Part shown: positions 9,148 through 62,869 of the stretch, one piece after another | Layout: every line of letters starts with the position of its first letter | How positions within the stretch are numbered: the stretch's first letter is position 1 | IMG/VR virus record: IMGVR_UViG_3300036770_004943 | Location: 64,001 to 128,000 of that record | Source: a virus | Taxonomy: Duplodnaviria > Heunggongvirae > Uroviricota > Caudoviricetes | DNA length: 64,000 nt | Direction: 5' to 3' (one strand) | Notes under the pieces: model-generated | Seen by the model: only the letters and a program-made list of their open reading frames with translations | Told to the model about the DNA's origin: nothing | Database searches by the model: none | Translations under genes and position numbers: made by a program

Positions 9148-9576
9148 TTATGCGTAGTAACGACCTTCTTTACTAGCTTTCATATGATCGATATGTCTTT
9201 GTCTTTGTTTTTGTTTCATATATGACATATGGTCTTGTTTACTTTTTTGTTGAACAAAAGTACCGATAGTTTCTTTTGATTTACGAACCTTATCTTCTAA
9301 CTTTGTAAAGTCATTTACAATACCGTCAATTTCTTTAGAATAACCATCTTTACCGGTTAATTTGGAATTACATAAATCCTCAAAAGCCATTTTAGCTTGT
9401 TGAATTGCTCTAACAATCTCATCAACTGTAGATAACTCACCGTTATTGGTTTTAAGTAATACAAGTGATTTCCCTTTTGGTTCAGCTGGTTGAGCCTTCA
9501 TTTGGGTATCATCTTCACGGATAATTTTTTTAACTAAGTTTTCTATATCGTTCTCATTAAGTCTAACTACTTTCAT
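9148..9576 (-). CDS. late hypothetical protein with IRE-type leader
   Basis: MKVVRLNENDIENLVKKIIRE; late motif at 9591-9600. Confidence 0.65.
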   Translation of the reverse strand: MKVVRLNENDIENLVKKIIREDDTQMKAQPAEPKGKSLVLLKTNNGELSTVDEIVRAIQQAKMAFEDLCNSKLTGKDGYSKEIDGIVNDFTKLEDKVRKSKETIGTFVQQKSKQDHMSYMKQKQRQRHIDHMKASKEGRYYA

Positions 9577-9651
9577 AATTACATTTTCTATATAAATATC
9601 TCACAATTAAATAAAATATCAATATATGTTGACGGATTAAAACAAAAAGAT

Positions 9652-9659
9652 TATCTTTG
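9652..9659 (+). promoter_or_regulatory. Bacteroidota-type -7 promoter element (TATCTTTG)
   Basis: TAnnTTTG with a GTTG element 20 nt upstream, ahead of ORF 9694. Confidence 0.65.
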
Positions 9660-9693
9660 TATAGTTATTAATCAAAATAGATTGTTTTAAAAT

Positions 9694-10452
9694 ATGGCAA
9701 AGAAAAAAGACCTTAAAGAACAGAACCCTAAGTTTATGATAGATTTAGTTGAAATCTTAGCGGAAAATGACCCATCGGTAACAAATAAATATTTACCGTT
9801 CATGATTAAACAAGCTGAAACTTGGGTTGATTGGCTTAAAGAGGAACTTAAAACCAACACATTCAAAGAAATGTTTGATATTGTAAAAGAGTTTGAGGAT
9901 TTATCTAGTAAAAATTTATTAGATAATAAAGACATCTATTCTTACGGCTCAAATCAAGAAATTGTTGATACCATTAAATTGGCACGTGAAAAAGTAACCA
10001 AGAGTCAGGTTAAAAAATTTGAAACTATTACTTTACACGAAGACGATAGATTTTTGGTACTCCAACCATTAACTTCTCGTAGTTCAAATGTTTATGGTAA
10101 ATCAACCAAATGGTGTGTTTCTTCTGACCAAAATGATTTTAAGAAATACTTTAACCAATACACTGAGAATGGTGTTCTTGTGTTTGTGATTGACAAATCA
10201 ATCAAAGAAGAACAAACTCGTGATAACATCTTCTCTAAGGTGGCCTTCCATAACGATAAAACCAAAACAGGTCATTCAGCAACTACAATTTGGGATTCAA
10301 AAGATGTTCAAGTTTCAGCTGTAGGTATGATGGAGTTGATGGAAATTATACCACAGGATGTAATGAAAGTGGTTAACACAACTCTTAAAGGTAAGACCAA
10401 TAAGGAACTTGCCAAAGAGAGAGGCATTAAAGATGATATCTACAAAGGGTAA
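9694..10452 (+). CDS. DPS..KY/YG..T.WC family protein, early leaderless copy
   Basis: NDPSVTNKYLPFM and VYGKSTKWCVSS are shared with ORFs 29769, 50084, 58880 and 61454. Confidence 0.75.
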   Translation: MAKKKDLKEQNPKFMIDLVEILAENDPSVTNKYLPFMIKQAETWVDWLKEELKTNTFKEMFDIVKEFEDLSSKNLLDNKDIYSYGSNQEIVDTIKLAREKVTKSQVKKFETITLHEDDRFLVLQPLTSRSSNVYGKSTKWCVSSDQNDFKKYFNQYTENGVLVFVIDKSIKEEQTRDNIFSKVAFHNDKTKTGHSATTIWDSKDVQVSAVGMMELMEIIPQDVMKVVNTTLKGKTNKELAKERGIKDDIYKG

Positions 10453-10468
10453 TCTTTAATCTTGATAG

Positions 10469-10834
10469 ATGGGAAGTATTTACAAAATTACTTCCCATTT
10501 TTATTTTTACCTTGTGATTAAAAAGAAAATAAAAAAACATCATCTTACTTATACGGAGGAGAGCCATTTGTTGGATATACCACACTTTGACTTAACCGAA
10601 GGAGCCACGATTGGTTACACTATTGCCCAAAACCTCACGATAGAAAACGTGGTAAATAATTGGCGGGTTAATTTAGGTGGGGAAGAAAGACTTCATTTAG
10701 ACTCAAATGGTGATATGAGAATAACTGGTGTGATGAAAGCATTAGGTTCGGTTAGATGGAATCAAGAGTTTCAAATACTACAATTTTGGGATGGGAACTC
10801 TTGGGTAAATTTAGTCAGCCAAGGCATCGTTTAA
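10469..10834 (+). CDS. hypothetical protein
   Basis: ORF follows 9694; start position uncertain. Confidence 0.4.
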   Translation: MGSIYKITSHFYFYLVIKKKIKKHHLTYTEESHLLDIPHFDLTEGATIGYTIAQNLTIENVVNNWRVNLGGEERLHLDSNGDMRITGVMKALGSVRWNQEFQILQFWDGNSWVNLVSQGIV

Positions 10835-11134
10835 AAACTGTCTAATTGTCCTTCTAACAATTGGTTCGGGGATGTTTGAAAAATCTTCTGAAATTTCAAA
10901 ATAAATTTTATTCACCAAATACTTCTTATGGTCTTCAATAAATCTAGGTTTATCATCGACAATAATATATTTTTTGTTTGGGAAAATGTCGTGGGTTGAC
11001 GGAAATTCCCATACACGATATTCTTTGATTAAAAAATTCATCAAACCTTTACTAATACCACCCAAATATAAAGGGTCAACCCAACTATAATCTTCTTCGG
11101 ATTCTTTTAATATTTTTTTAATTAATTTTCTCAC
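10811..11134 (-). CDS. late hypothetical protein with LKE leader
   Basis: MRKLIKKILKE|SEEDYSWV; late motif at 11138-11147. Confidence 0.65.
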   Translation of the reverse strand: MRKLIKKILKESEEDYSWVDPLYLGGISKGLMNFLIKEYRVWEFPSTHDIFPNKKYIIVDDKPRFIEDHKKYLVNKIYFEISEDFSNIPEPIVRRTIRQFLNDALAD

Positions 11135-11173
11135 ATTTATAAATATCCAATAAATTATGTTTATATTTGTGTT

Positions 11174-11410
11174 ATGAAATTTAAATCTTTAAAAGAACAG
11201 TATACTGAAATGATGGGTAATAAAATATCTGTTAGTCTTGAGGATTTAACGGATAATGAAAAAACCCTTATTGAGGCCGGATTTGATTTATTTTCCGAAA
11301 AAATGGAAGATATTAAAATTCTTAACGATGAAATTAGAAGAATTTCAATTGAATTAGCTAATTTAAAATCTTTTAATGAAGATTTGTTTAAAGATAGTGA
11401 TGAAGATTAA
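11174..11410 (+). CDS. early hypothetical protein
   Basis: TATATTTG at 11162-11169 immediately upstream. Confidence 0.6.
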   Translation: MKFKSLKEQYTEMMGNKISVSLEDLTDNEKTLIEAGFDLFSEKMEDIKILNDEIRRISIELANLKSFNEDLFKDSDED

Positions 11411-12192: not shown

Positions 12193-13980
12193 TTAACGTA
12201 ATTCTCTAACGTCAAAAGTTCTCAATCCGTCTACTCTGATATGGCCGTAAAAGCGGTTGTTCACCATTTTTTTGGCGTAACGAGTCATGATACCTTTTAC
12301 AGGTACGAAGTTGAACGGATTGTACATTGTAGGAGTTAACTGCATCGGTACGTATGGAGCGTAGATGTAGCCAGTGTCTAACAATGACTTACCTTTGTGT
12401 CCAATGATAATTGAGTATGCTGGAGCGTAAGGGTCACGGTATACAGTGTAACGACCACTTAATGAACCTACTCTTTCAATACCCATGTTATACTGATCTT
12501 GTTCAGGAGCCGCGTTAGATACGTGGAAGTATTCTAAATCATCAAATACTGCTGATACTTCAGAAGATACAACTACGAAGTTAGCACCACCTCTTAAAGT
12601 TGATTTGTGAATTTGAGCTGAGATTTGGTTGATAGCGGTCATCAAAGTCTGATTCCAATCTTTTTGAGTGTAAGCAGTTGATTGAGGTAAACGCTTCCAT
12701 CCGTTGTAATCCCAACGTAATTGCCATGCTGCACCTTTTCTTAAGTCGATTAGGATTTCACGGTCAATTTCAGCCGCAACTTGTTCTGATAACAATGCTG
12801 TTAATTCAGCTTCAGCATCAATGTTGTGGAATGCACTAACGTCTTGTGCTAATTCAGGAGTCCATGTTGCTCTCAATTTTCTTTCAGTAACAGATACAGT
12901 TACAGATTGAAGTTCGAAAGAAACTTCACCCATTGCTGATTCAGCTTCAAGGTCAGAATATCTTCTCCAAGTTACTAACGGAGCAGAATCACAAATTGTT
13001 GTTCCAGTGTAGTCAGCACCGATGTAACCATCGAATGTATTAGCTCCACAAGAAACACAAACTGGGTGAGTTAAATCCAATTCAATATAAAGTTTTCCGT
13101 TAGGAGAACAAATATCACTGTATTGAACCATTGCTTTACCATATTTTTGTGTTACAACACGGAAAGGAATTGAGTCACCTGTAGCGAAAATAGTTTGACC
13201 GTTTGGATCTAAAACATCAGCTTGAGCAACTACAGTTAAAGATGCTAAGAAAGTCTCAGTATCCATTTCATTACCATCTGGAGTTGATAAACGACCAGCA
13301 TCGATAGATGAGAAACCGTTTAACTCAATGATTTGATGACGTAAAGAACCATCAGAAGCTGCTGGAGCTTTACCATCCATAAATTCCATACCATTTGTAC
13401 AAGCTGTCCAAGTTACACACTTAGCTGTATCATCAACAACTAATGTAATTTCACCTTTTGATTGATCGTACATTCCGTCATTGTAGAAAGCGTCATAAAG
13501 ATTCTTTAAACAATTGCTGTAAGTTGTAGGATCACATTCACTGATACAAGTCGCGATAAGTGGTTGTCCGTGTTTAGATGTACCACCGTTAACACCGTCG
13601 TTAAAATTAGTATCGTTTATTCTTTCAGAATACTTAGGAATGAAATAAAACAATTTACCGATAGGTAAATTTAAAGCCTGTACAGAAACGATGTCGTTAG
13701 CTAATAATTTAGAGAAAACACGTCTTACGATAGGAAACACAACTGTTTCGAAAGAACCAGAAGAACTAGCTTGTGATCCAACACCACCAGCTGTAGTAGT
13801 TTCGTTAATAAGAATTGACGCTTGATTTTCATATAACAAAGCGATGTTTTCTTTAATGTGGCCTTCAAGACCCTCTAGAAATCCTAATGATTCCCATTTG
13901 TTTACGGTTGCCTCACGGATTGCTTTTTGGTGTTTTAACCCGATGTTTCCAACCTCACCTGATTTTAATAGATATCCCAT
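12193..13980 (-). CDS. major capsid protein (T4 gp23-like)
   Basis: WESLGFLEGL, FPIVRRVF, RKLRATWTPELAQD, AEIDREI, GYIYAPYVP, GIMTRYA. Confidence 0.95.
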   Translation of the reverse strand: MGYLLKSGEVGNIGLKHQKAIREATVNKWESLGFLEGLEGHIKENIALLYENQASILINETTTAGGVGSQASSSGSFETVVFPIVRRVFSKLLANDIVSVQALNLPIGKLFYFIPKYSERINDTNFNDGVNGGTSKHGQPLIATCISECDPTTYSNCLKNLYDAFYNDGMYDQSKGEITLVVDDTAKCVTWTACTNGMEFMDGKAPAASDGSLRHQIIELNGFSSIDAGRLSTPDGNEMDTETFLASLTVVAQADVLDPNGQTIFATGDSIPFRVVTQKYGKAMVQYSDICSPNGKLYIELDLTHPVCVSCGANTFDGYIGADYTGTTICDSAPLVTWRRYSDLEAESAMGEVSFELQSVTVSVTERKLRATWTPELAQDVSAFHNIDAEAELTALLSEQVAAEIDREILIDLRKGAAWQLRWDYNGWKRLPQSTAYTQKDWNQTLMTAINQISAQIHKSTLRGGANFVVVSSEVSAVFDDLEYFHVSNAAPEQDQYNMGIERVGSLSGRYTVYRDPYAPAYSIIIGHKGKSLLDTGYIYAPYVPMQLTPTMYNPFNFVPVKGIMTRYAKKMVNNRFYGHIRVDGLRTFDVRELR

Positions 13981-14010: not shown

Positions 14011-15465
14011 TTATTTTTTATATGAGTACTCCCAAAGTTTTTTCATGTTTTGTAACTCAGGGTGTACAAATACGCTTGATTCATTGATTTGTGCTCCACT
14101 TGAAGCGGTTTTATTGATTTTCTCATCGATAGATTCCTTAATAGGTGTTTTACCGTTTGAGTATTCTTTAACAAGTTGTTTATAAATTGATTGAGACTCT
14201 TTTAAATCTTTAGCGGAATCTAATCTTTTTAAAATGTCTTGTTTTTCTTCTTTAGTGGTAGAGTTTTCAGTGAACAATCTTACAGCGTAAGTAAGATTGC
14301 TATTAAATACAGCCACTTCTTGAAGTTTCTTTCTGAATTGTTTAAGAGCGTCAACCATTTTTTCTTGAGTTTCTTTTAATTCAGTATTTTCATTTTCAAT
14401 AGAAGTAAGTTTTGTATTTAAATTTGTATTTTCTTTGATGAGTTTTGTGATTTGTGGAGTTGTCGATTCACCAACGTACAAATGTCTTGGTGCCGCTTTT
14501 GGTTTATCCAACCCTTTACGACCAAATCTTCTACCTGCACCCAAAGTACGAGACATGTAAGACATTTCATCTTCATCGTCTTGTTTACCCATTGATTTTT
14601 CTATAGCCATACCTCTTTTCTTTTCATAAGAAGAGATGTCATGGTCTTTATTTAAATCAGCTTTTTCTGGGTGTTTTAAACCACTTTTTTTGTAGTTCAT
14701 GTAAGAAGACATATCATCTTCAGAATCCATATAATCCATGTGATCTTCAGAATCCATATAATCCATGTAATCCTCATCTACAACAATTTCATAGATAACT
14801 TCACCAGAATCTTCAACACCCTCTTCAATTTCACCAGCTTCAACGCTAGTAACACCTCCAGTTGGGTTCATTTCGATTCTGTATTCAGAACCAGATTTGT
14901 TATCTTTTAAAGTGACCATACCATTGTCATTAACAACTTCAATTTCATCTTCAGGTCCCATTTTCTTAAAAACGGAAATCACATCAGGTAATTTATGATT
15001 TGTAAGGTCTTGAACCTCAACATCACCAGTTGTATCCATGCCCATGTCAAAGTCTAAATCCATTTCACCTTCTTCAGATTCATCACCTAAATCAAGATCC
15101 ATGTCTTCAGATTCGTCACCTAAGTCGATATCTAAATCTTCTTCTTCACCTTCACCCTCTTCAGTGTCAAAGTCTAAATCCATTTCACCTTCTTCAGATT
15201 CATCACCTAAATCAAGATCCATGTCTTCTTCCTCTTCATCTTCTTCAGTGTCAAGGTCGAGGTCAAGGTCTTCACCTTCCTCTTCTTCCTCTTCTTCTTT
15301 CAATCTTTTCGAACCAGTTAATGATTCCTTTACCATTTCTTCAATTTCTGAACTCATTGTTTGAGTCAGTATTTCTTTTGCGTTAGATTTGAAAGCGGCG
15401 TCGATTTGTTCAGCCTCTAAAAGAGCTTCCTCAATAATTGATTTCTTTTCGTTTGCCATTTTCAT
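14011..15465 (-). CDS. prohead core/scaffolding protein, highly acidic
   Basis: Directly upstream of MCP; D/E-rich middle region and coiled-coil C-terminus (LQEVAVFNSNLTY). Confidence 0.75.
   Translation of the reverse strand: MKMANEKKSIIEEALLEAEQIDAAFKSNAKEILTQTMSSEIEEMVKESLTGSKRLKEEEEEEEGEDLDLDLDTEEDEEEEDMDLDLGDESEEGEMDLDFDTEEGEGEEEDLDIDLGDESEDMDLDLGDESEEGEMDLDFDMGMDTTGDVEVQDLTNHKLPDVISVFKKMGPEDEIEVVNDNGMVTLKDNKSGSEYRIEMNPTGGVTSVEAGEIEEGVEDSGEVIYEIVVDEDYMDYMDSEDHMDYMDSEDDMSSYMNYKKSGLKHPEKADLNKDHDISSYEKKRGMAIEKSMGKQDDEDEMSYMSRTLGAGRRFGRKGLDKPKAAPRHLYVGESTTPQITKLIKENTNLNTKLTSIENENTELKETQEKMVDALKQFRKKLQEVAVFNSNLTYAVRLFTENSTTKEEKQDILKRLDSAKDLKESQSIYKQLVKEYSNGKTPIKESIDEKINKTASSGAQINESSVFVHPELQNMKKLWEYSYKK
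15045..15228. repeat. 64-bp direct repeat (15045-15108 and 15165-15228) in the scaffold gene
   Basis: Identical copies encoding EDMDLDLGDESEEGEMDLDFD. Confidence 0.85.
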
Positions 15466-15601: not shown

Positions 15602-16081
15602 TTGATGAAAGAAAGTATTAAAAAAATACTCAGAGAATACACTGAAAAATGGTCAAATCACCATGATTTTATGAAAAAGGTTGATTATGCACAGGAAAAA
15701 GCGATAGAGGATTCAGATTTTCCTGCTGAAACAGAAAAAATTGACCACATGAAAAATAAAATTAAAAAAAGAGTAGAAAAAGCTTACAAAGAGGTTACTG
15801 GTAAGGAACCTGTGAGTGATGATAATATTATTGTTAAAGTTGATGATAATATTAAAGCCGGTAAAATAGGATCATTCAAACACCCAGAAAGTAAAAAAGA
15901 CCTCGGGATTATGAAAGTACACCCCAAGGCCTTAAATGATATTAGTTATGTTGAGGACATAATTAAACACGAGTTAATTCATGCCGCTCATGGATTAGAA
16001 GACGAAGAAGCTAGAAACCACGGAGGTGTCTTTCAACAAGTCGCCGATAAAGTGGGTTTACCCAAAAAATATCGCCGTTAA
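15602..16081 (+). CDS. SprT-like zinc metalloprotease with LRE leader
   Basis: IIKHELIHAAH (HExxH) plus downstream HGGVF; MMKESIKKILRE; late motif at 15590-15599. Confidence 0.7.
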   Translation: MMKESIKKILREYTEKWSNHHDFMKKVDYAQEKAIEDSDFPAETEKIDHMKNKIKKRVEKAYKEVTGKEPVSDDNIIVKVDDNIKAGKIGSFKHPESKKDLGIMKVHPKALNDISYVEDIIKHELIHAAHGLEDEEARNHGGVFQQVADKVGLPKKYRR

Positions 16082-16985: not shown

Positions 16986-18500
16986 TTATTGATGACTAAA
17001 ATCTAAAAATTTTGCTATTTTTTTCTGAGAGAAACGAGGACAATCAACCTTACTACACTTCTTTTTAAATTTCTTTTTAATTAAAGGTTTGTGTTTTGGG
17101 TTTCTTTTAACTTTAACATGAGTGTGTTTAATTTTTTTATCTATGGTTTTAACCAAAGTATAAGTATTCTTCTCAATGACTTTCATTTCTGGCTCTATGG
17201 AACCAATTATAGTGTCTTGATAAGTTGCGTTAATTGTTATTTTAACGTATCTATAAGGTGCTGTTTCTTTACGTGCTAATTCTCTTTCAGATTTAGACAT
17301 TGTTTTGTTATAAAGGTTTGGTCCTTGGTCAGGTTTAACATTTACACTTACACTATCAACATCAGTAAAGTATTTAGAAACACTTTCAGCTCTTAATTCA
17401 GCTAATTTTTGATTACCCATTTTAATAGGTTCTCTATCTGTTGAAGATTCTATCATGACAGATTCTATTTGACCACCCACTTGTTCAATTGAATCTTTTA
17501 TAGCTTGGAGAGATTCAATACCTTCTGGTGATAATTGATATCCACCAGTAACAAACATACCGTCACTATTAAGACTAAAATCTAAAGATTCTGTATAAAC
17601 TATTACTGTGTCATTACCTTTTAATGTATCACTAGTTGTTTCAACACCGGTTAAAGCATAACCTTGTTTTAGTTTTGAAGCTAATTGCTTATCATCTTTA
17701 ACTTTTACTGTTGAAGTAACCCTGCCGTGTCTACCTTCTAGATTTTCTAAAGCTTTATCAGCATTTTTAAAAATTTTATCTTTTACTTCAGGTGATAAAT
17801 TTTTTGTAATCTTATTTAAAGTCGAAGTATCTTGAAGAGTTGATTCTATTTTATTTTTAACGTCTTCTTTAGATATCACATTTTTTGCTGTTTGTGCCTG
17901 ACTTTGATTCAACCCAACACCAGTTAATAAAGCAATACCTAAAAGAACGTCTTTCCACCCTTCAGTTAATAGGGTTTCGTTTAACTGTTGTTCTGTTAAA
18001 TTTACTTTAAAAAAAAAAGATTCGTCTAAATCTCTTGGGGTTGGTCTACCACCTCTAAGGTTACCTAAATTTTTCTTTTCAAAATTAATAATAACTTTTG
18101 ATAAGTTTTTCATAGGCCCTTCTACTTGGGAAAGAAAATCGTCGATACCCGTTTTTAATTCATCATCAATAACAGATTCAGAACCGATTTCATTTAAATG
18201 GTTTAAAATTTCAGATAAAGCATTGTAAGAACCTTTTAAATGACCTGCTTGACCGCCGGCATACATTGCAAACATTGAAGGATCATCGTAACCACCAACC
18301 TCATTTATAGTATTTTCTTTGATGTTTTGTTTTTTCTTAACATCTAAAACACATCTTTCGTATTTTTCTTTTTGGGATTTGGTCCAGTCACTCCTTTCGG
18401 TAGAACCTATTTTTTCACCAATACTCGCTGTACAAACGGCCCAAGGATTAACTTTTTTACCTCTCTTTTTAGCTTCCAATATTAATTTATCTATATTCAT
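16986..18500 (-). CDS. multi-module late protein with hydrophobic segment and OmpA-like C-terminal domain
   Basis: FVTGGYQLS...IESSTD...NQKLAELRAESVSKYF (OmpA_C-like); several [IL]xE junctions. Confidence 0.6.
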   Translation of the reverse strand: MNIDKLILEAKKRGKKVNPWAVCTASIGEKIGSTERSDWTKSQKEKYERCVLDVKKKQNIKENTINEVGGYDDPSMFAMYAGGQAGHLKGSYNALSEILNHLNEIGSESVIDDELKTGIDDFLSQVEGPMKNLSKVIINFEKKNLGNLRGGRPTPRDLDESFFFKVNLTEQQLNETLLTEGWKDVLLGIALLTGVGLNQSQAQTAKNVISKEDVKNKIESTLQDTSTLNKITKNLSPEVKDKIFKNADKALENLEGRHGRVTSTVKVKDDKQLASKLKQGYALTGVETTSDTLKGNDTVIVYTESLDFSLNSDGMFVTGGYQLSPEGIESLQAIKDSIEQVGGQIESVMIESSTDREPIKMGNQKLAELRAESVSKYFTDVDSVSVNVKPDQGPNLYNKTMSKSERELARKETAPYRYVKITINATYQDTIIGSIEPEMKVIEKNTYTLVKTIDKKIKHTHVKVKRNPKHKPLIKKKFKKKCSKVDCPRFSQKKIAKFLDFSHQ

Positions 18501-18559: not shown

Positions 18560-19342
18560 TTATTTTAAAAATTTATTTAACCCGTCAATTATTTTTTGAT
18601 TTCTATTACCAGTTAAATCAACAAAGGATATTGTAGTTGGTTTTACATCTTCCATTAAATTCCATTGACAAGAATATCCATTACAACCTTGAGTAGATTC
18701 GGTAAATGTTTTTAAATCACCAGCATCTGTAGAAATCCAAGAACCCGGAGTTGATGGAGACGTTACGATATCCCAACAAATTAATTCAAAGTCATCTTGA
18801 ACTACGTTTTTACCATTTTCAACTTTAAGGGATCCAACACCACGAGATGAAATACCAACAGTCCAACCTTTTCTAATCATGTTAACCACTTTATCACCAA
18901 CCGATGAAATAATACCTAATTTGTGGTAACCTGGTGTAGTATCTAATTCCATTTCACCCATAAGAGTTTTACCTTCCCACCATGTTTTAGTAATTCTGTG
19001 GGAAACTCTGTCAGCATCAATGATAGAAGACTCGGGGTGATTTAATTCACCTAATGAAGTCCCCATTTTAATATATTCTTGATATCTAACATTTTCTCTT
19101 TCAAGAATTTCTTTTGGGTATAATCTACCATTCTTGTTTTCAATACCCCATTTTTGAAGTACTGCGTAAACAATTATTGTATCTGGTAAACTACCGTCTT
19201 TTCCTATATTTGTACCTGATTTAAATTCTCTGATTAAATCAGCATTTTTTGTACCTTTATACGTTAAATCAGGGGAAATGTATCCCGCATCGTATTCTAC
19301 TAAGATACCTCTACCTGTTTCGTTAGCTTTTAAAATTTTCAT
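18560..19342 (-). CDS. prohead core protease (T4 gp21-like)
   Basis: NKNGRLYP, GELNHP, RVSH, GISSRGVGS, WDIVTSPS; late motif at 19361-19369. Confidence 0.92.
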   Translation of the reverse strand: MKILKANETGRGILVEYDAGYISPDLTYKGTKNADLIREFKSGTNIGKDGSLPDTIIVYAVLQKWGIENKNGRLYPKEILERENVRYQEYIKMGTSLGELNHPESSIIDADRVSHRITKTWWEGKTLMGEMELDTTPGYHKLGIISSVGDKVVNMIRKGWTVGISSRGVGSLKVENGKNVVQDDFELICWDIVTSPSTPGSWISTDAGDLKTFTESTQGCNGYSCQWNLMEDVKPTTISFVDLTGNRNQKIIDGLNKFLK

Positions 19343-19395: not shown

Positions 19396-19815
19396 ATGAA
19401 GAACCTGATTCGAAAAATAATGAAGGAGGAGATGGTAAGAAAAAAAATACACATGGATTTACCCAATTCTGTATTGAAAATGAATCGGATTTTCAAGGAA
19501 AATGGGTATGAACTATATGTCGTTGGTGGTGCTGTGAGAGATTTGTTATACGGTAATGAACCTAAAGATTTTGATTTAACTACAAACGCTAAACCCGAAG
19601 AAATCAAATCTATGTTGAATATGTATCGTACTATCGAATTAGGTGAACAGTTCGGTATTATTAATGTGATTACAGAAGATGGTCAGTATGAAATTGCCAC
19701 TTTTAGACGTGATTTATCTTTTAAAGATAAAAGTATGAGTTCTTTTTTAGTATATTTGAAAACGTTAAATAACGGTAGTTATGAACTATTTTTAGAGAAA
19801 CTAAAAATGAAATAA
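19396..19815 (+). CDS. cca: CCA-adding enzyme (class II tRNA nucleotidyltransferase), N-terminal fragment
   Basis: YVVGGAVRD, PKDFDLTT, QFG, EIATFRRD, then 34 unrelated residues and a stop. Confidence 0.85.
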   Translation: MKNLIRKIMKEEMVRKKIHMDLPNSVLKMNRIFKENGYELYVVGGAVRDLLYGNEPKDFDLTTNAKPEEIKSMLNMYRTIELGEQFGIINVITEDGQYEIATFRRDLSFKDKSMSSFLVYLKTLNNGSYELFLEKLKMK

Positions 19816-19855
19816 CTACATTCAGAAATATCATGATATTTATAAATAAAATATC

Positions 19856-20530
19856 ATGGAAAAAGGTTACATTTACAAATTAATAGATCCAACAAATAAT
19901 GAATGTAGATATATCGGTAAAACTATACAAAAACTTAAAGTTAGATTATATCGACATTTAAATGATATTGATAAAAGTATTAGCCATAAAAATAACTGGT
20001 TAATTGGTTTAAGAGATAAGGGTTTATTAAACGATGTTAAAATAGAAATTTTAGAAGAATGTGATTTATACATTTTAAACGAACGTGAGGTGTTTTGGAT
20101 TAGTGAGTTTAAAAATAACGGACATAAATTAACTAATCTAACAATCGGTGGTGATGTAGGTTCTATGGGTCATAAACATAGTGATGAGGCTAAAAGGAAA
20201 ATATCTGAGGTTTCTAAAAAAATGGATAGGTCACATATGAGGACTAAAGAATTTAGAGATAAAATTAGTAAATCACTTATTGGTAATAATAGACATAAGG
20301 GATCTAAACATAGTGAAGAAACAAAGAAAAAAATATCTGAAAGTAAAAAAGGTACTGTGAGTTGGAATGCACAGTCAGTTTTACAATTAGATAAAGAAGG
20401 TAAGGTGATAAAAGAGTGGAGGAGTGCTAAATACGCTGCCGAACATCTTGGTTTAAGTCAAGGTAATATTTGGTCAGTAATAAATGGTAATAGAAATAAA
20501 TGTGGTGGTTATAAATGGAAATTAAAATGA
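19856..20530 (+). CDS. GIY-YIG homing endonuclease with NUMOD3-like repeats
   Basis: GYIYKL...RYIGKT...R...H; HSDEAKRKIS and HSEETKKKIS; C-terminal HTH; own late motif at 19836-19845. Confidence 0.88.
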   Translation: MEKGYIYKLIDPTNNECRYIGKTIQKLKVRLYRHLNDIDKSISHKNNWLIGLRDKGLLNDVKIEILEECDLYILNEREVFWISEFKNNGHKLTNLTIGGDVGSMGHKHSDEAKRKISEVSKKMDRSHMRTKEFRDKISKSLIGNNRHKGSKHSEETKKKISESKKGTVSWNAQSVLQLDKEGKVIKEWRSAKYAAEHLGLSQGNIWSVINGNRNKCGGYKWKLK

Positions 20531-20760
20531 ACGAAAATAAAACAACCTATATAAATAGAGATGGTGATTTAACTATTAATGGAACTTTTAACTTTGAGGG
20601 TTCGTTAATTGAATTACGTAATATAATAGATAAAACTATTGAAGAATATAGTGAAGATACAAAGTGTGAATTAGCCACTTTTGGTAGTTTCCCACATAGA
20701 TGGTCTTCACATATAATTATTAAACAAGATAAAAATGGAAAACTGGGAACAAATAGCTAA
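20515..20760 (+). CDS. hypothetical protein inside the cca-splitting insertion
   Basis: ORF overlaps both the endonuclease stop and the cca C-fragment start. Confidence 0.55.
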   Translation: MEIKMNENKTTYINRDGDLTINGTFNFEGSLIELRNIIDKTIEEYSEDTKCELATFGSFPHRWSSHIIIKQDKNGKLGTNS

Positions 20761-22015
20761 AGAATTACTACCTAAAGAGTATAGTGAATTCATGAAATTT
20801 ACTGGTTCAGGTAGAAGACCTGACTCTGTAGAATTCACCACAATCGACCAAGACGTTAAGCGTCGTGATTTAACCATTAACGCTCTTTTCTATGACATTG
20901 ATAAAGGTGAAGTGGTTGATTTAGTTGGTGGTATTGGTGATATTGAAAGTAATGTAGTTAGAACCGTTGGTTCCGCTTCGGAACGTTTTGATGAGGATAA
21001 ATTACGTGTACTTAGAGCACTTAGATTCGCAGCCCGTGTTAATTCTAACGTAGATAAAGACATTGAATCTGCGATAAAAAGGGATAAAACACCAATTAGT
21101 GGGAATGGTTTACCTGTTTCACAAGAACGTATTAGAGATGAGTTTCTTAAAGGTATTAAACAGGCCAAATCCGTTGGTTATTTTACCCAATTAATAACCA
21201 AATATAATCTTTGGGATTGGATATTTGGTCGACTTGTAGTTACAACCGAACCCTTAATTGAGGTTAAAAACCCAATCGTACTTATAGCGTCTTTACTTAG
21301 AAGTAATGAACCTACTTTGATTGAAAAGACCCTAACTAATCAATTTAAATATACTGTTGAAGAAGTAAGGGAAATTGTTTTTTTAATTAAGTTTTTACTC
21401 CTCGGAGAAGATGTTTATAAATTACGTGAGAGGTTTGATGTCATTAGAATGGACACTGAAACATTAAAAACTTTCGGTAGTTTAATGGGTGTCCCTAATA
21501 AAATTATAAATACTTTTCTAAAATATCGTATAACAACTTCAGGTGAGGATTTAATGAAACAAGGTTTTAAAGGTCGTGAAATTGGTCAAGAAAAAGAAAG
21601 AATAGAAAAAGAAAAATTTAAAAAACTTATGAAAGAGTCCACAAAGAGAGTTTCTTATTCAGGTGTAATACTAAATGAGAAATCAAGAGAAATGTTAAAA
21701 AATTATATTAAATTCCCTAAAGACTGGGAGTTTATTGGACATCACATGACAATTAACATGGGACCAATAACAGAAGAATATAAACCACTTATAGGCCAAT
21801 CAGTAGATTTGTTAATTACCCATGTTGGGTCGACAGATAAAGTTGTTGCTGTTAAAGTTGAAACTGAAATTAAAACTAAAAATAAAACACCACACATTAC
21901 TATAGCTGTAGATAGACGTAATGGTGGTAAACCAGTAATGTCTAATGAAATAACTGATTGGGCTCTTATTTACCCATTTGAGGTTGAAGGAAAAATTGAA
22001 GAAATTTCTTTTTAA
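20735..22015 (+). CDS. cca: CCA-adding enzyme C-terminal fragment fused to a 2H phosphoesterase
   Basis: GRRPD..DVKRRDLTINAL, FDEDKLRVLRALRF, SQERIRDEF; C-terminal HHMT and PHIT (two HxT motifs) after 21638. Confidence 0.85.
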   Translation: MENWEQIAKELLPKEYSEFMKFTGSGRRPDSVEFTTIDQDVKRRDLTINALFYDIDKGEVVDLVGGIGDIESNVVRTVGSASERFDEDKLRVLRALRFAARVNSNVDKDIESAIKRDKTPISGNGLPVSQERIRDEFLKGIKQAKSVGYFTQLITKYNLWDWIFGRLVVTTEPLIEVKNPIVLIASLLRSNEPTLIEKTLTNQFKYTVEEVREIVFLIKFLLLGEDVYKLRERFDVIRMDTETLKTFGSLMGVPNKIINTFLKYRITTSGEDLMKQGFKGREIGQEKERIEKEKFKKLMKESTKRVSYSGVILNEKSREMLKNYIKFPKDWEFIGHHMTINMGPITEEYKPLIGQSVDLLITHVGSTDKVVAVKVETEIKTKNKTPHITIAVDRRNGGKPVMSNEITDWALIYPFEVEGKIEEISF

Positions 22016-49908: not shown

Positions 49909-50087
49909 GTAGAATTAAAGAACAATTTATCGACGAAATTAATTGTGTAATTGAAGACTACGATTATCAATACACAGAATGGCTTAAACAACAAGAGGAT
50001 AAAGCTATTGTAGATTTTTACGAGGAAAATAAAGAAAGGTTTGAGGGTGAAAAAATATTTAATCTAACAAATACCTACCCTTTTTAG
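49905..50087 (+). CDS. early hypothetical protein
   Basis: ATGA-coupled to the previous ORF. Confidence 0.55.
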   Translation: MSRIKEQFIDEINCVIEDYDYQYTEWLKQQEDKAIVDFYEENKERFEGEKIFNLTNTYPF

Positions 50088-51778
50088 TCTGTTGGGAATA
50101 TGTAGTATTTATCACCATCTATTGTTACATAATCGTAACTACCAGTCCTACTAAAATATTCATAATCTAAATCATCTGCCATATCATTAATTAATTCGGT
50201 TTCGTCAATACCGACCAAACCGTTTTTAATTGCATTTTTATCTAAACCAGTTTTACTACTCCAGTAACCAAAGTCTTCCAACCAATCTAATGGGTCGTCC
50301 GTTAAACGACTAACATAATGTTCGTAATAATCGTTATAAAGTCTATCTTTAATGGATTCTAAAAGTTTATCGTTGGTTTTTTCTATAGACTCATTTTCGG
50401 CCTCCAATTCTGATAATTCTTGCTCTTCGTCTTCATCTAATTCATCATATCTACCCATCATTTCGTCGATTTCTTCTTGATTACTTTCCATGATTGATTG
50501 GTTAACTTCCCACTCTTCAACCATGACTTTAGTTTCTTTATCTAACCTTTTTCCTTCGTGTAGTATATCATCATTATCTAAATCCCCTGCATAACTTTCA
50601 GCCATATCACGTGCAACACCTCTTGGGTCATTGATGTATATATATTTTTCAGGGTTATTACCGATAGCTTCCCAAACGCCTAAATCACTAATGTAATTTT
50701 CCGCCCATTCGTGTTTAGCTCTTTCAACTTCATCCGTTGTCGCTACAGCATAATCATCACTACCGTCTACGGTATAAACACGCATACCGTAATAACCGTA
50801 ATTTCTTTGTTCAACTTCTTCAACTTCTTCTTCACTTAAAGCCAAATGTTCAACCAAAGCTTGGATGTAAGGATCCTCAACGTAAGCCATGTTGGCATAC
50901 ATTTCATCCATTTTTGTTTGCATGTATTTTAGAATAACTCCCTTAACAGATGTTGGAACCGTATCTAAATAATCATAACCAGAAGAACCTCTACTCGCAA
51001 TATTAGTGTCTTCAGCATTCCATAATTTAATTTTATCAGTATTTAAAGTCCAAACCGAGGGGTTACCTGGTGTTGAGGTGACATATTTATTTACTTTTTT
51101 GACATATGGTATTTGCCAAGCAACTTTATATTCAGGGTTATCAGAATTTTTACTTTTATTAATCACATAAATTAAAAATTTACGGTCGGTTTCACGTTTA
51201 AAATGTGAATCAGTTTCTTTTGATGTTGTACACCATTTAGTTCCGGCACCATAAACACAAGAAGCACCCCAAGTTTTAGGTCTAACCACTAACCAATTAC
51301 CATCTTCGTAAATTTTGTCAACACCTTTTTTAGCCTCTTTTTCTTCGTCTTTTCTTTGTTTTCTTTCTTTTGCTTGGGCTAAATCACTACCTAAGTAATG
51401 AATCATATCACTATCAGTAAATTTATATTGATAAAGGTCTGTAGTACCGTATTTTTCACCAGAAACTTCATCATTATAGACCATATATGGTAATAATTCG
51501 TGAAATTTTTTAACTAACGTCATTAAAAAGCCAGCAATCTCACCTGCTTCTGGTGATTTAAACTGCATTGTTTCGTCTAAAATATCTTCGACTGATTGCA
51601 TCGTTGGTTCGTGTACCATAGCCTTAACCAACCATTCTAAATATTTTTGATTACCTGATGGGTCATTTTTTACAAAATAATCCACAATTTCAGAACTAAC
51701 GTCAGGGAATTTTTTTCTAACATCATCAACCCGATTTTCTGATAAAACTTTTCTTATATTTTCTAACGTGATTTTCAT
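50084..51778 (-). CDS. DPSGNxKY/YGxGTxWC family protein, late copy with acidic C-terminal extension
   Basis: VLSE|NRVDD, DPSGNQKYLEWL, ASCVYGAGTKWCTT. Confidence 0.75.
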   Translation of the reverse strand: MKITLENIRKVLSENRVDDVRKKFPDVSSEIVDYFVKNDPSGNQKYLEWLVKAMVHEPTMQSVEDILDETMQFKSPEAGEIAGFLMTLVKKFHELLPYMVYNDEVSGEKYGTTDLYQYKFTDSDMIHYLGSDLAQAKERKQRKDEEKEAKKGVDKIYEDGNWLVVRPKTWGASCVYGAGTKWCTTSKETDSHFKRETDRKFLIYVINKSKNSDNPEYKVAWQIPYVKKVNKYVTSTPGNPSVWTLNTDKIKLWNAEDTNIASRGSSGYDYLDTVPTSVKGVILKYMQTKMDEMYANMAYVEDPYIQALVEHLALSEEEVEEVEQRNYGYYGMRVYTVDGSDDYAVATTDEVERAKHEWAENYISDLGVWEAIGNNPEKYIYINDPRGVARDMAESYAGDLDNDDILHEGKRLDKETKVMVEEWEVNQSIMESNQEEIDEMMGRYDELDEDEEQELSELEAENESIEKTNDKLLESIKDRLYNDYYEHYVSRLTDDPLDWLEDFGYWSSKTGLDKNAIKNGLVGIDETELINDMADDLDYEYFSRTGSYDYVTIDGDKYYIFPTD

Positions 51779-54137: not shown

Positions 54138-54542
54138 TTAATCTAAATTAATATCGTCCTTTTCAGGTTTAAAATCACGAAGATGTTCAATCGCTTCAAT
54201 AATATTTTCTAATTGATCCACAACTTGTCCTATATAATCTTCTGAAGATGTTTCAGGCCAATCATCAGCTAAAACATCAGGTTCTTTTGTTTGAATAATC
54301 ATCAAATCTTCTACGATATCATACAAAGAACTTGCCATATCACCAAACGCTTTTAATGCTTTGTCACTGAATCCTTTAGTTTCTGGAGCGTTTTCAGGAT
54401 CTAAATCTTCTTTACGTTCTTTTAGATATTGTTTAATAGCCTTATCTATTTTAGATTCGTGTACAAAGGTCCCATCTTTCTTTAGTTTTTCACTAATAAG
54501 CTTTTTAAATTTTTCGTTATTAAATCTAACTTTCTTTTTCAT
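54138..54542 (-). CDS. late hypothetical protein with leader
   Basis: KFKKLISE...FVHE|; late motif near 54559-54566. Confidence 0.6.
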   Translation of the reverse strand: MKKKVRFNNEKFKKLISEKLKKDGTFVHESKIDKAIKQYLKERKEDLDPENAPETKGFSDKALKAFGDMASSLYDIVEDLMIIQTKEPDVLADDWPETSSEDYIGQVVDQLENIIEAIEHLRDFKPEKDDINLD

Positions 54543-58663: not shown

Positions 58664-58883
58664 TATTTTATTCTACACAGGTCTTTCAATGGTGGGATTC
58701 CCAACCATTATTTTATTTTTCTTTATTTTTTTACATATATCTTCAGAAAAAAAAGAAATAAATGAAGAGGTTAGAAAAGTATATGATACTGTAACCGTTA
58801 AAAAAGTGGTAAAAATTTACGATACAGTTTACGTAAAAAAAACAAAATGGATAGAAAAAGTAAAAACCGACACAATTAATTAA
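58647..58883 (+). CDS. small membrane-anchored protein
   Basis: One transmembrane helix; DTV, DTV and DTI motifs in the exposed tail. Confidence 0.55.
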   Translation: MKKTLDILFYTGLSMVGFPTIILFFFIFLHISSEKKEINEEVRKVYDTVTVKKVVKIYDTVYVKKTKWIEKVKTDTIN

Positions 58884-59857
58884 CTGTGTGTTTCATAAAA
58901 TTTACCTATCTTATCTTTATGATAATCTTCAGCCCTCATAACCCCCGACCAAAAAGCGTGAGCTGATTCTAAACCGTAAACATCTTTTACCATGTCGGAT
59001 ATATTGTGAGCATCAATTTCCCCGTCTGAGGCATCGTAAAAAACCATATCACCGTCAATGTTAATATGAAGAGCCACTTTACTCATATCAAATTCTTCGT
59101 CTAAATAATCTAAAAAATAATCAGAAATATCTTTAATTGATTTAGTTTTAGGGATAAAATAAAATAAAGAACTTGTATTACTTTGATACCTATTAAACTG
59201 AACGTCTTCTTTTGCTGTCGTACACCAACGAGTTCCGGCACCGTAAGTACAAGAAGACCTGTGTGTTGTTGGTATAATAACTAACCAATAGTCATTATCC
59301 ATTAATTTAATGGACTCTTTTTTGATATCACTTTTAGACGGCAATTGTTTAATTGCGTTAGTTATTTCAAACAATAAATAATGGTCATAATATGAATTAA
59401 TATCTTTTGGATTTTTCATTATATTTTCTAATTCAGCTATCGGGTATCTAAATTTAAAATAAGGTGATGGAGTACCATAAGAAATTGAAAATTCTTTTGG
59501 GTTAGATATTGCACTCCAAGCCACAACCTTATCGATATTTTCTTTAGTTAATTTATTTTGTAAATTATGAAAGTTAGTAATCCCTGTAATAAGGTTTTCA
59601 ATTAACATACTAGCAACGTTAAAGGGGTGGAATTTACCTGTGGCTTTTTTAATTTCTTTTAAGGCCCACATTAAATATTTTTGGTTTCCTGAAGGATCAG
59701 AATTTACCAAATCTACAAACCACTCAGGCATTTTTCTACCTTCTTTATAAGATTGTGGTATTAAATAATCTTGGAAATCTTTAATAACAAAAGATTTAGC
59801 ATCATCTAGTCTTCCTTCCGATAAAATTTGTTCCGATATAATTTTTCTAACTAACAT
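58880..59857 (-). CDS. DPSGNxKY/YGxGTxWC family protein, late copy
   Basis: ILSE|GRLDD, DPSGNQKYLMWA, SSCTYGAGTRWCTT; late motif near 59869-59877. Confidence 0.75.
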   Translation of the reverse strand: MLVRKIISEQILSEGRLDDAKSFVIKDFQDYLIPQSYKEGRKMPEWFVDLVNSDPSGNQKYLMWALKEIKKATGKFHPFNVASMLIENLITGITNFHNLQNKLTKENIDKVVAWSAISNPKEFSISYGTPSPYFKFRYPIAELENIMKNPKDINSYYDHYLLFEITNAIKQLPSKSDIKKESIKLMDNDYWLVIIPTTHRSSCTYGAGTRWCTTAKEDVQFNRYQSNTSSLFYFIPKTKSIKDISDYFLDYLDEEFDMSKVALHINIDGDMVFYDASDGEIDAHNISDMVKDVYGLESAHAFWSGVMRAEDYHKDKIGKFYETHS

Positions 59858-60186: not shown

Positions 60187-61044
60187 TTATTCTTTTTCAA
60201 TAACAATTTTTCTTTTACCACCTTCAGAAGTATCGTAAATAACGAAATGAACTTCAGGGTACATAGTACTTAATTCATTTTCAAGAAAATCTTGTGCTGC
60301 TTTAACATTTCTTTTGTCATCATCAGAAAATCCTAAAGATATTTTTTTGTATTTACCGGCAACCATATGTTTTTTAACACCATCAAGTAATTTTTTAACA
60401 AAATTTTCAATCGCTACTTTCTTAGCGTGTTCAGGATTTGACGCTCCGCCTTTAACTTCAAGACCAAATCTTTCACCAAATTCTTCAGAAGAAACAGGAT
60501 AAAATTCCCCTCTTTCATCTAAATACAAATCTAATAATTGTGTGGCATTAAGCCCCTGAGTTAAACTACTTGGTAATTCTTTTTGAATGTTTGTAAACAT
60601 CATTCTTTTTTCGTCGTCACTTAAAACCATTTTAACAAAAAGTTTAACCCCCTTTTTTAAAGTTTCAGGACTATGACCTCTAGCCGTATTGATAGCGAAA
60701 GGGTTTGCGTGTGTTAAAGCCTCAATAAATTTTTTGTAACTTGGTGCAAAACTACCATTATGTATAGCCTTTTCAGCGTCAACCAAGAAAGATTTGTTAT
60801 CAGTAAAGTCAGCAAATGAATTTGGTGTTGTTCTATAATTAGGGTCTGACCTAAAATGAGCAAACTCTTCAGTTGAAACTTTTACGGGGACCCAACTACC
60901 GTTTTCATTTTTTTCCATGTTAACTTTAGTGGGCATTCTTAAAATATTATCATCCCAATCAAAAACATAAGACCTTAATTTATTTTCAAGTAGTGATTTT
61001 CTAAGTTTTTTATATTGTGTTTCAGTAATTAAAAATTTTTTCAT
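60187..61044 (-). CDS. HAD-superfamily phosphatase with leader
   Basis: SLLE|NKLRSYVFDWDDN (DxD), INTARGH, KK, FSDDDKRN; late motif near 61059-61068. Confidence 0.75.
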   Translation of the reverse strand: MKKFLITETQYKKLRKSLLENKLRSYVFDWDDNILRMPTKVNMEKNENGSWVPVKVSTEEFAHFRSDPNYRTTPNSFADFTDNKSFLVDAEKAIHNGSFAPSYKKFIEALTHANPFAINTARGHSPETLKKGVKLFVKMVLSDDEKRMMFTNIQKELPSSLTQGLNATQLLDLYLDERGEFYPVSSEEFGERFGLEVKGGASNPEHAKKVAIENFVKKLLDGVKKHMVAGKYKKISLGFSDDDKRNVKAAQDFLENELSTMYPEVHFVIYDTSEGGKRKIVIEKE

Positions 61045-61104
61045 CTAAATTTGTTTATTTATAAATATTACATATCTTTGTATTATAATTAAAGATTTAC
61101 ACAC

Positions 61105-61431
61105 ATGAACTATTCGGATTATACAATTAATGAAGTTTGGAAAAATGTATCAACAGAAGAAATTATTAAAATAAAAAAAGCTGCAAAAAAACTTGTTATT
61201 TTAAATAACGAATGGTTTTTATTTCATTTGTTTATGTTGGTGTTTTCACTACCGTCTTTTGTGTTAATGTTTAGTAATTTATCTTTTGGTTTTAATTGTT
61301 TTGTAATAAACCTTGTGATTTACACACCTATATGGTTTTTCTATCTTAAAATAAAACACGTTAACACAGAGTTATTGGAACAGGCGAAAAAAAGAATAGA
61401 AGAAATGGATATTGTCTTAAAGTATCGTTAA
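61105..61431 (+). CDS. early membrane protein (two TM helices)
   Basis: TATCTTTG at 61073-61080; two hydrophobic segments. Confidence 0.6.
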   Translation: MNYSDYTINEVWKNVSTEEIIKIKKAAKKLVILNNEWFLFHLFMLVFSLPSFVLMFSNLSFGFNCFVINLVIYTPIWFFYLKIKHVNTELLEQAKKRIEEMDIVLKYR

Positions 61432-61433
61432 AT

Positions 61434-61455
61434 AAAAAACCCCATAGGGGTTTTT
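61434..61455. terminator. bidirectional intrinsic terminator
   Basis: aaaaacccc-ata-ggggttttt. Confidence 0.7.
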
Positions 61456-62869
61456 ATCTTATTTTTTGTAGGAAAACACCGTTTATATTAACACCTGTGA
61501 GTGTTATGGTTTGATTACCGGTTTCAAAATCATCATCTGGACCTAAATTTAATTTAGGTAACAGTTTATCTGTTTTTTTTAAGTCGATTGTATTATAAGC
61601 TTTATAAAAATCACTAGTATAATCACGGTATTGTCTAATTCTTTTCGGTACGTAAACGGTATAGACTCCTGCATCATCTTGGGGTAATTTAGTTCCTTTG
61701 GTTCCCGATCCGAACCATGTGGCAATTACATAACCTTCGTCACCACGTATATAACCGTAACCACTAGCTAATAATTTAACTTTATCACCTTTTCTAAGAC
61801 GTACAGGGTTTTCATTTTTTTCGTAAGGTATGTCACCTTTTTTCTTTTTAGCTATTGAGACTACAACCTTTTTTTCAACAAATCTTAAAAGTTGTTGTAA
61901 TTTTTCTGGTAAATTAGACTCTTTTATAAACTCATCCCAATTAATTTCATCATCTTCAGCATTCCAATAAGTTGTTTTTGAACCACCTTTATATAAAGCA
62001 GATAAACCACCCCTAGGATTTCTAGGAAACCTTTCAGCTGGTTTATCGACATAACCATAAAATAATTTAACTTCTTTATGCCAAGGTAAATTAATATTAA
62101 CATCTTGTGGTTCCGATCCCATTGGAATTTTAGTATGTATCGCCCATTTTCGGTTTGCAGCTTTACTAATAACAAAAATCAAATACTCACCATTGTCAGT
62201 GTAATTTTTAAAATAACTATTATCACCTCTCATAGTAACACACCATTTAGTGTTAGCACCATAAGCACAAGAAGATTGATGTGTTTTAGGGGAAACAAAT
62301 AACCATTCATTATCTTCATAAATTTTGGTTACATCTTTCGCTAATTCTTTTTCTTGAGATTGTAATTTTTTATTGGATAAAGCGTCTTTTAAAGTATTAT
62401 AGTTATATCTATTAATATCTTTAATGGGTAATGCATTAACAAATCGATGAAAATATTTTACCTCTTCAATTAAAGCGTCGGCTAAGTCTTTAAGAAAATA
62501 TTTTACCTCTATATTATCAAAATTAGTTTTTTTAACTCTGCTACTAAACTCATTGGCTAAAATATTTTGACAAATTGGTGGTTTTGTTGGATCACCCTTT
62601 TCATCAGGATAATCATGATTATCCTCTAACCACTGATATATGGTTGATGTGTTTGAGGCCCATTCCATACCTGTAATCTCGTTAACCCCTTCAGAATCCC
62701 AAGCGTTTTTACACATCCATTCAAGATACTTGTTATTACCTGATGAATCTCCAGCTGATAAATAATCAATAAATTTTGGTGGGAGACAAGGGTATTTATC
62801 CTTTGCCTGTTGTATTCTATTCTCGGTTAAGAGTTGTTCTAATATAATATATTTAAAAATATTTTTCAT
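61454..62869 (-). CDS. DPSGNxKY/YGxxTxWC family protein, late copy
   Basis: LLTE|NRIQQ, DSSGNNKYLEWM, SSCAYGANTKWCVT; late motif near 62878-62886. Confidence 0.75.
   Translation of the reverse strand: MKNIFKYIILEQLLTENRIQQAKDKYPCLPPKFIDYLSAGDSSGNNKYLEWMCKNAWDSEGVNEITGMEWASNTSTIYQWLEDNHDYPDEKGDPTKPPICQNILANEFSSRVKKTNFDNIEVKYFLKDLADALIEEVKYFHRFVNALPIKDINRYNYNTLKDALSNKKLQSQEKELAKDVTKIYEDNEWLFVSPKTHQSSCAYGANTKWCVTMRGDNSYFKNYTDNGEYLIFVISKAANRKWAIHTKIPMGSEPQDVNINLPWHKEVKLFYGYVDKPAERFPRNPRGGLSALYKGGSKTTYWNAEDDEINWDEFIKESNLPEKLQQLLRFVEKKVVVSIAKKKKGDIPYEKNENPVRLRKGDKVKLLASGYGYIRGDEGYVIATWFGSGTKGTKLPQDDAGVYTVYVPKRIRQYRDYTSDFYKAYNTIDLKKTDKLLPKLNLGPDDDFETGNQTITLTGVNINGVFLQKIR

Follow-up and report, generated by a model that had tools for sequence, protein, structure and literature searches.

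Do many unrelated late proteins of an uncultured T4-like phage begin with a shared, portable leader that addresses them to the capsid and is cut off there after a glutamate? The question is raised by a 64,000-nt stretch of the IMG/VR virus record IMGVR_UViG_3300036770_004943 (the window; bases 64001-128000 of a 130,210-bp contig; ~30% G+C), in which an earlier note had listed 13 open reading frames (ORFs) starting with a short segment that ends in [ILM]xE, and had proposed that a common tag lets their products be packaged, processed and injected with the DNA. Judged by its gene content, the phage is T4-like, with a 130-kb genome, a gp23 capsid, a gp20 portal and a gp21-type S77 protease; the window contains a T4-type head module on the minus strand, comprising the genes for the gp23 capsid protein, a scaffold-like protein, the S77 protease, the gp20 portal and the large terminase. 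A late promoter-like motif, ATATTTAT, lies directly 5' of the portal, terminase, protease, sheath and other structural genes as well as of the leader genes described here, and a second promoter-like motif, TAnnTTTG, is found 5' of several plus-strand genes. Genes were classed as late or early by promoter motif, carried down each operon, the late class being defined by the motif alone. By sequence evidence, a portable tag on unrelated late proteins does exist, in the form of a leader family tighter than the motif originally listed.

This tighter leader family is real, positional and N-terminal. On alignment it comprises three related forms, 10-22 residues long, each ending in hydrophobic-hydrophobic-x-Glu (hhxE): a short form, MKxLI(K/R)KILKE; a long form, MKKVIRLTESDLxRIVKRVIxE, in which a strand-like MKKVIRL is followed by the helix TESDLxRIVKRVIxE; and a third, Y-type form, MK(K/Y)(F/I)(L/I)ITESQ(Y/F), which in a HAD phosphatase family runs on to LLE at residue 20 (MKKFLITESQY...LLE). 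The pattern [ILVM][KR]K[ILVM][ILVM][KR]E was matched six times in the 40,964-aa proteome, always at residues 5-15 (0.5 expected), and 4/6 of these tight-leader genes lie no more than 6 kb from the capsid gene. A slightly relaxed pattern gave 35 matches in 80 related loci (labelled L001 etc.; matches counted among ORFs called on them), 30 of which were N-terminal (3 expected). Hidden Markov model (HMM) profiles of each form were built from relatives only and used to score the first 35 residues of the 152 ORFs of the genome, with 1778 internal 35-residue tiles as a control (maxima of 6.4, 6.3 and 11.6 bits for the long, short and Y-type profiles, respectively). Twelve N-termini, including nine in the window, outscored every internal tile. 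The leader ending was also associated with late genes: hhxE occurred within the first 25 residues of 34/94 late versus 3/37 early genes (p = 0.001), and [KR]hhxE in 13/94 versus 0/37 (p = 0.019). In the relatives, the late motif was present within 40 nt of 21/45 leader genes, as compared with 348/1313 other genes (p = 0.006).

The loose motif did not behave in this way. All 13 quoted N-terminal strings, as well as the SLKE of an early ORF cited as a caution, were located where they had been reported, and [ILM]xE was found in 52/94 late versus 17/37 early genes (p = 0.44), the lack of enrichment that the earlier note had itself named as speaking against its proposal. The motif was present in the first 25 residues of 73/146 genes (50%), against 28.5% of internal 25-aa windows, which bears out the accompanying caveat that it carries little information. 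Thirteen independent cases were also too many. Although the ORFs had been called unrelated, four of them, starting at 32585, 51778, 59857 and 62869, are paralogs over ~240 aa and therefore count as one case; the description does hold for the six tight-leader proteins, which have no mutual similarity beyond the leader. A further ORF is unsupported and two are ambiguous. Individual profile support was missing for five listed ORFs (16986-18500, 29769-32585, 34932-37463, 45067-46509 and 61454-62869), among which 29769-32585 and 61454-62869 are supported instead by alignment with their paralogs, and 16986-18500 and 45067-46509 are ambiguous as leader carriers from their sequences. For 34932-37463 (843 aa; listed with KSINE), neither profiles nor alignment supported a leader, and chance is the right explanation both for this ORF and for the loose motif. 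Over ~270 residues, the 843-aa protein resembles the scaffold-like protein encoded at 14011-15465 (24% identity, 5e-11), a similarity that is probably of the coiled-coil type or may reflect a scaffold-derived domain.

Could the tight leader, too, arise with no functional tag behind it, from AT-rich codon bias (N-termini rich in Lys, Ile, Leu and Glu, with MKK starts favouring initiation), common N-terminal helices and paralogy? The commonness of the loose motif without late specificity, the paralogy of four listed ORFs, the hydrophobic-x-Glu motif of the terminase and the A-rich gene starts would all be expected on such an explanation, and a reduced-alphabet k-mer enrichment was discarded as leader evidence, being confounded by the MKK starts. 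However, the tight leader was absent from the 1778 internal tiles and the 37 early genes, is found internally in polyproteins of relatives, and recurs in more than 6000 protein clusters (E<=1) among the database matches listed. Moreover, codons vary freely between leader copies, so that the conservation is at the level of the protein rather than that of a DNA repeat. For the tight leader we regard this explanation as largely refuted, and as very improbable.

The proteins that carry the leader in the window are diverse. The strongest long-form match (32.6 bits) is a 142-aa protein (9148-9576, minus strand) with the leader at residues 1-21 (nt 9514-9576, ending KKIIRE); its gene has a late promoter directly 5', and its one homolog, in L001, has the same leader. 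Late promoters also precede the genes of a 110-aa protein (38599-38931, plus strand) with a long/Y-type leader at residues 1-17 (ending RKLIE; long HMM, 17.2 bits) and of a 134-aa protein (54138-54542, minus strand) with a weak long-type leader at residues 1-18 (ending KKLISE; long HMM, 11.0 bits), the latter being a newly found carrier that was absent from the earlier list. The short form is carried by a 107-aa protein (10811-11134, minus strand; residues 1-11, KKILKE; 7.8 bits), whose GTG start adjoins ATATTTATAAAT and whose cargo portion had no homolog among the 80 related loci; by a 159-aa protein with an HExxH SprT-like region (15602-16081, plus strand; KKILRE; 13.9 bits), which is probably translated from the ATG at 15605; and by a 139-aa fragment corresponding to the N-terminal head domain of a CCA-adding enzyme/poly(A) polymerase (19396-19815, plus strand; RKIMKE, residues 1-11; 12.4 bits). 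The SprT-like assignment is below cutoff (Pfam, 4.6e-05; phrog_6361), and the orthologs in L001 and L002 likewise have leaders. In the polymerase fragment the PolyA_pol domain (Pfam, 3.4e-19) begins at residue 40, and a ATATTTAC motif is situated 5' of the gene. The CCA-adding enzyme is split in this genome around a GIY-YIG endonuclease gene (19396-22015), and its C-terminal fragment contains an internal KKLMKE before the last domain, with a weak leader-profile score (1.9 bits).

The Y-type leader is best represented by a 285-aa HAD phosphatase (60187-61044, minus strand; Y-type HMM, 20.9 bits) beginning with the 20-residue sequence MKKFLITETQY...SLLE. In an AlphaFold2 (AF2) model of this protein (mean pLDDT 83.8), the fold opens with a strand at residue 22 and is preceded by a low-confidence helix that spans residues 1-20 (pLDDT <50 over 16-20). 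Its best structural matches (VIA-align) were to the 3'-phosphatase domain of T4 Pnkp (Z 10.8 and 10.1), followed by Pnkp1 of the Pnkp1/Rnl/Hen1 RNA-repair complex (Z 9.9), all aligned from residue 21; a Foldseek search of the PDB with the same model gave no clear match. The 20-residue leader is kept in 120 homologs, with an invariant Glu8, and one ortholog has a canonical long leader in its place. The gene has a late promoter, which would be odd for an RNA-repair enzyme unless it is delivered by the virion.

Two of the listed proteins resemble these carriers less closely. A 480-aa DHH-like protein (45067-46509, minus strand; Pfam DHH 0.0012, below cutoff) has at residues 8-14 the same KKFLITE with which the HAD phosphatase begins, but seven residues in from the annotated Met, and its Y-type score of 6.4 bits is under the control maximum. 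In the head operon, just downstream of the protease gene, a 504-aa fusion protein (16986-18500, minus strand) begins with MNIDKLILE, resembling MNIRKIIKE, and consists of a 55-residue N-terminal module, a degenerate leader-like junction (~57-67), a further module and an OmpA-like domain (315-385). Its residues 57-137 align with the leader and cargo of a short-leader protein of L002 (8e-10), and the module has homologs in L001 and L002.

The PcfJ-like paralogs provide an internal control. Four of them, all on the minus strand, preceded by late promoters and recognized by alignment, carry an N-terminal extension: a 938-aa protein (29769-32585; 13 residues, ending LLLE), a 564-aa protein (50084-51778; 14 residues, ending KVLSE; short HMM, 7.7 bits), a 325-aa protein (58880-59857; ending ILSE; long HMM, 8.5 bits) and a 471-aa protein (61454-62869; 16 residues, ending LLTE). 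The extension (13-16 residues) is thus present in 4/4 late copies and absent in 2/2 copies with a host-type promoter, namely a 252-aa early paralog (9694-10452, plus strand) and its leaderless ortholog in L001 (13631-14371), both of which have TAnnTTTG 5' of the gene and start at the alignment column right after the Glu of the late copies. In this family the leader tracks late expression, and the protein itself can do without it.

Among relatives, the leader is attached to many more proteins. Near the capsid gene in the 80 loci we counted ~25 unrelated cargo clusters with a leader, mostly singletons, and the set of cargos is hypervariable between relatives. In one common family, RYMFFSNL, some members have the short form and others the long one, joined to the cargo by linkers of 0-8 residues. 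When searched with tblastn against cultured phages, the PcfJ-like and RYMFFSNL-family proteins gave only distant or uncultured matches. The commonest leader cargo in relatives is a ~155-aa family (RYMFFSNLEQMRRQCD..., DGHDWAQDHI...) with a basic, Cys-containing C-terminal tail (for example L044:20258-20734 and L061:7057-7563; proteins P0020-P0042), which is absent from this genome. A search of 5.8 billion sequences with the long-leader profile yielded the clusters mentioned above; the top of that match list is skewed to multi-copy proteins, in which the scores of the copies add up.

What might read these leaders? The window does encode a gp21-like protease, as the earlier note had stated: the prohead protease (18560-19342, minus strand; Peptidase_S77, Pfam PF03420, 8.6e-28, above cutoff) is 35% identical to T4 gp21 (BLASTP 4e-26; PDB 5JBL 4e-19). 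It retains the catalytic His (ELNHP) and Ser (GISSRG), each aligned with a position that is mutated in the inactive T4 protease crystallized as 5JBL. Residues H102, S165 and S166 are invariant in 42 relatives, and the N-terminus, GILVE-Y, aligns with LLIE-9 of T4 gp21, a suspected autocleavage site (PMC9026906). The claim that the major capsid protein carries the same kind of site was likewise borne out. This protein (gp23 family; 12193-13980, minus strand; Pfam Gp23 PF07068, 2.2e-69) has a propeptide of residues 1-60 ending ILINE (ILINE-T), homologous to the T4 cut site; at the column of T4 gp23 Glu65, where the cut is known (FLTE-A, Glu65-Ala66), Glu is present in 79/79 relatives, preceded by L/I at P4, I/L/M at P3 and N/T/S at P2. 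The leaders end in the same pattern as this propeptide junction (hydrophobic-hydrophobic-x-Glu), with I/V/L at P4, L/I/V/M at P3 and Glu at P1. The last position is strict for Glu over Asp: position 20 of the HAD family is Glu in 69/71 unique N-termini and Asp in none, a count unbiased by the leader since the family was collected by full-length homology, and the last residue of long-leader copies is Glu in 141/153 and Asp in one, at a proteome E:D ratio of 1.09. In T4, Asp at the corresponding position of the capsid-targeting sequence (CTS) blocks processing but not targeting (PMC9026906).

Comparable N-termini occur in other proteins of the head module. The scaffold-like protein encoded upstream of the capsid gene (14011-15465, minus strand; 78 homologs in related loci) has a conserved N-terminal IIEE/LVEE-Ala and a repeated (L/M)VKE-Ser, with hhxE in 14/17 unique complete N-termini. 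T4 gp22 resembles the CTS; a parallel resemblance of this scaffold N-terminus to the leader was considered and, for want of support in the HMM scores, dropped. Directly downstream of the portal gene (25864-27804, minus strand; Pfam Portal_T4 2.3e-77), in the position of T4 gp67/gp68, a 263-aa conserved protein (25046-25837, minus strand) has a conserved N-terminal hhxE-Ser/Gly, with the motif in 23/31 unique N-termini of relatives, and is from its sequence and position a candidate prohead-core protein. A modelled complex of the S77 protease with residues 1-45 of the 10811-11134 protein scored 0.00, which has no bearing on binding.

These features suggest an analogue of the T4 CTS, a reading to which we give an even chance. 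As in T4, a short N-terminal peptide that starts with MK and ends in hydrophobic-x-Glu is common to otherwise unrelated proteins, the carriers are late genes whose cargo varies between relatives, and the genome encodes a gp21-type protease and a gp23 capsid with a homologous cut site. T4 IPII and IPIII start with MKTYQEFIAE-A (as read from the record), and the ten-residue propeptide of T4 gp24 ends LLRE-S. The CTS has been proposed as a general means for T4-like phages to load varied proteins (PMC9026906; PMC3012670). That the tags are N-terminal, modular, attached to unrelated folds, associated with late promoters and terminated by Glu is observed; that the tagged proteins dock to the core, are cleaved, stay in the virion and are injected we infer by analogy. 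By that analogy, the tag would dock a newly made late protein into the prohead scaffolding core, where cleavage behind the Glu by the S77 head protease would release the cargo within the head; whatever cargo is retained there would be delivered to the next host along with the DNA. In its widest form the proposal is that interchangeable, Glu-ending strand-plus-helix address tags, placed at N-termini and between polyprotein modules, direct unrelated proteins into the capsid, dozens of them per genome, in thousands of uncultured T4-like phages, and that the head protease releases the cargo, including late-only enzymes of the RNA-end-repair type. This wider reading has, in our estimation, a reasonable but clearly less than even chance.

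The system would nevertheless differ from that of T4 in several respects. There are three leader forms here as compared with one, and ~12 carriers per genome as compared with ~4; the carriers include enzymes and large proteins (325-938 aa); the leader is also found internally in multi-module proteins of relatives; and the system is known here from sequence alone. A second parallel is offered by phiKZ-like giant phages (phiKZ gp175, SPN3US gp245, 201phi2-1), which have propeptide-bearing inner-body or ejection proteins (PMC5694885, PMC7411985, PMC10052503). There, too, a gp21-related protease cleaves many of the head proteins behind a Glu, the propeptides are thought to guide incorporation, and a large and varied cargo is ejected into the host. 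However, the phiKZ-type propeptides are long and share no single short tag, the cut motif is S/A/G-x-E, and packaging has been proven by mass spectrometry.

Several observations weigh against the idea of a cleaved, head-loading tag. The leaders share with MKTYQEFIAE only MK and hydrophobic-x-E, and T4 IPI-III are basic (+2 to +9), whereas the cargos here are mostly acidic (net charges +6 to -54, with lows of -25 and -54). Of the split CCA enzyme, only the N-terminal half is tagged. The terminase (27893-29722, minus strand) has a hydrophobic-hydrophobic-x-E N-terminus in 25/31 relatives, although processing is not expected there, and hhxE by itself therefore does not show processing. Some short-leader proteins keep an acidic-aromatic box, (E/S)x(D/E)(D/E)(F/Y)xW(V/I), after the proposed cut (in the window, 10811-11134, where it reads SEEDYSW; elsewhere in the genome, 6159-6638 and 6601-7077; in relatives, L001:12543-13581 and L022:10397-10969), which a tag that is purely clipped off does not predict. 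In the database search, ~90 of the best 234 matches held 2-3 copies of the leader, each before a further module; such internal copies fit polyprotein processing and, equally, a repeated docking helix. Contigs reached through the leader search were arrays of small genes with no head gene within 10 kb. Finally, no cultured phage was found to share the leader, and the head region of Flavobacterium phage immuto had no comparable leaders. A tblastn search of cultured phages with the 30-aa leader also gave no match, the query probably being too short.

The leader-gene arrays reach up to ~14 consecutive small genes (L085:8461-14262, L086:155-9906; also L083:12367-17149). Each array gene has a late-type promoter a few bases from its start codon and one of the three leaders, and several are tandem paralogs (MKIVISESQY...).

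Multiple copies within one polypeptide, the box retained beyond the junction, the acidity of the cargos and the distance of the arrays from head genes would all be in keeping with a tag that is never cleaved, a strand and amphipathic helix serving to dock or oligomerise late proteins with a partner other than the prohead core, such as a chaperone, a host complex or another part of the virion. The invariant Glu8 of the HAD-family leader points the same way, suggesting structural constraints beyond the cut site. Such an element would not explain why the last position takes Glu and not Asp, why its P4-P1 pattern is identical to that of the capsid site homologous to the proven T4 cut, or why the early PcfJ-like paralog starts exactly after the Glu; in the AF2 model the junction is low-confidence and flexible, and no candidate partner is known. 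We judge uncleaved docking to be unlikely, though a serious alternative to cleavage.

The acidity of the cargos bears on a further question, that of their fate, and implies that some, instead of being injected enzymes, may be accessories of the prohead core that end up degraded. The T4 core proteins gp22, gp67 and gp68 are acidic, are encoded in the head operon, have the N-terminal sites LIAE, GLIE and LIPE, and are degraded by gp21. Several tagged proteins are similarly small and very acidic (net -12, -14, -25), like T4 gp67, four such proteins are encoded inside the head operon, and the scaffold and the 263-aa protein that follows the portal have the same N-terminal pattern. Some of the small, acidic tagged proteins of the head operon may thus be core accessories like gp67/gp68 and not injected cargo. 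That most carriers are scaffold accessories of this kind, loaded into the prohead core by the tag and then degraded and expelled at maturation, seems to us distinctly improbable: clear enzymes are tagged (the HAD phosphatase resembling T4 Pnkp and the CCA-enzyme head domain), a hypervariable cargo set suits host-interaction proteins better than assembly parts, and the T4 core proteins, by contrast, are conserved assembly proteins and not a variable set with unrelated enzyme domains.

The phage that carries these genes stands far from cultured ones. Its closest cultured capsid proteins, from Flavobacterium phage immuto, Microcystis phage Mel-JY01 and Rhodothermus RM378, are only ~40% identical, and at least 598 contigs in IMG/VR are related to it, at 59-76% identity. 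Full-text literature searching, on the leader strings and on tags resembling the CTS in T4-like phages from metagenomes, returned nothing relevant, and no description of such leaders was found outside T-even internal proteins. The TAnnTTTG motif is the Bacteroidota housekeeping -7 box, and the promoters of the phage point to a Bacteroidota host. In late genes generally (for example those starting at 11134, 15602, 19396 and 38599), ATATTTAT ends merely 0-12 nt 5' of the start codon; this spacing implies late mRNAs with almost no 5' untranslated region and no space for a Shine-Dalgarno sequence. In several relatives, the prohead protease is 577-616 aa long (L005:490-2340, L006:6441-8291, L012:6522-8258, L014:6788-8521), with a ~350-residue insertion exactly at the catalytic GEL|NHP, where the sequence reads GEC...; from its position and sequence, the insertion looks like an intein in the active site.

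As a sequence pattern the leaders are well supported, and loading into the head is the function we infer for them. If that function is correct, the tags would mark, from sequence alone, the proteins that an uncultured phage delivers with its DNA, its injected proteome, a class that is hard to find and rich in counter-defence functions. A Pnkp-like phosphatase and half of a CCA-adding enzyme would be useful at the very start of infection, yet both have late promoters. The reach of the T4 CTS, so far a few internal proteins of T-even phages, would also widen to an extensive modular system in an abundant and distant clade, and phage engineering could gain new packaging handles in these tags.

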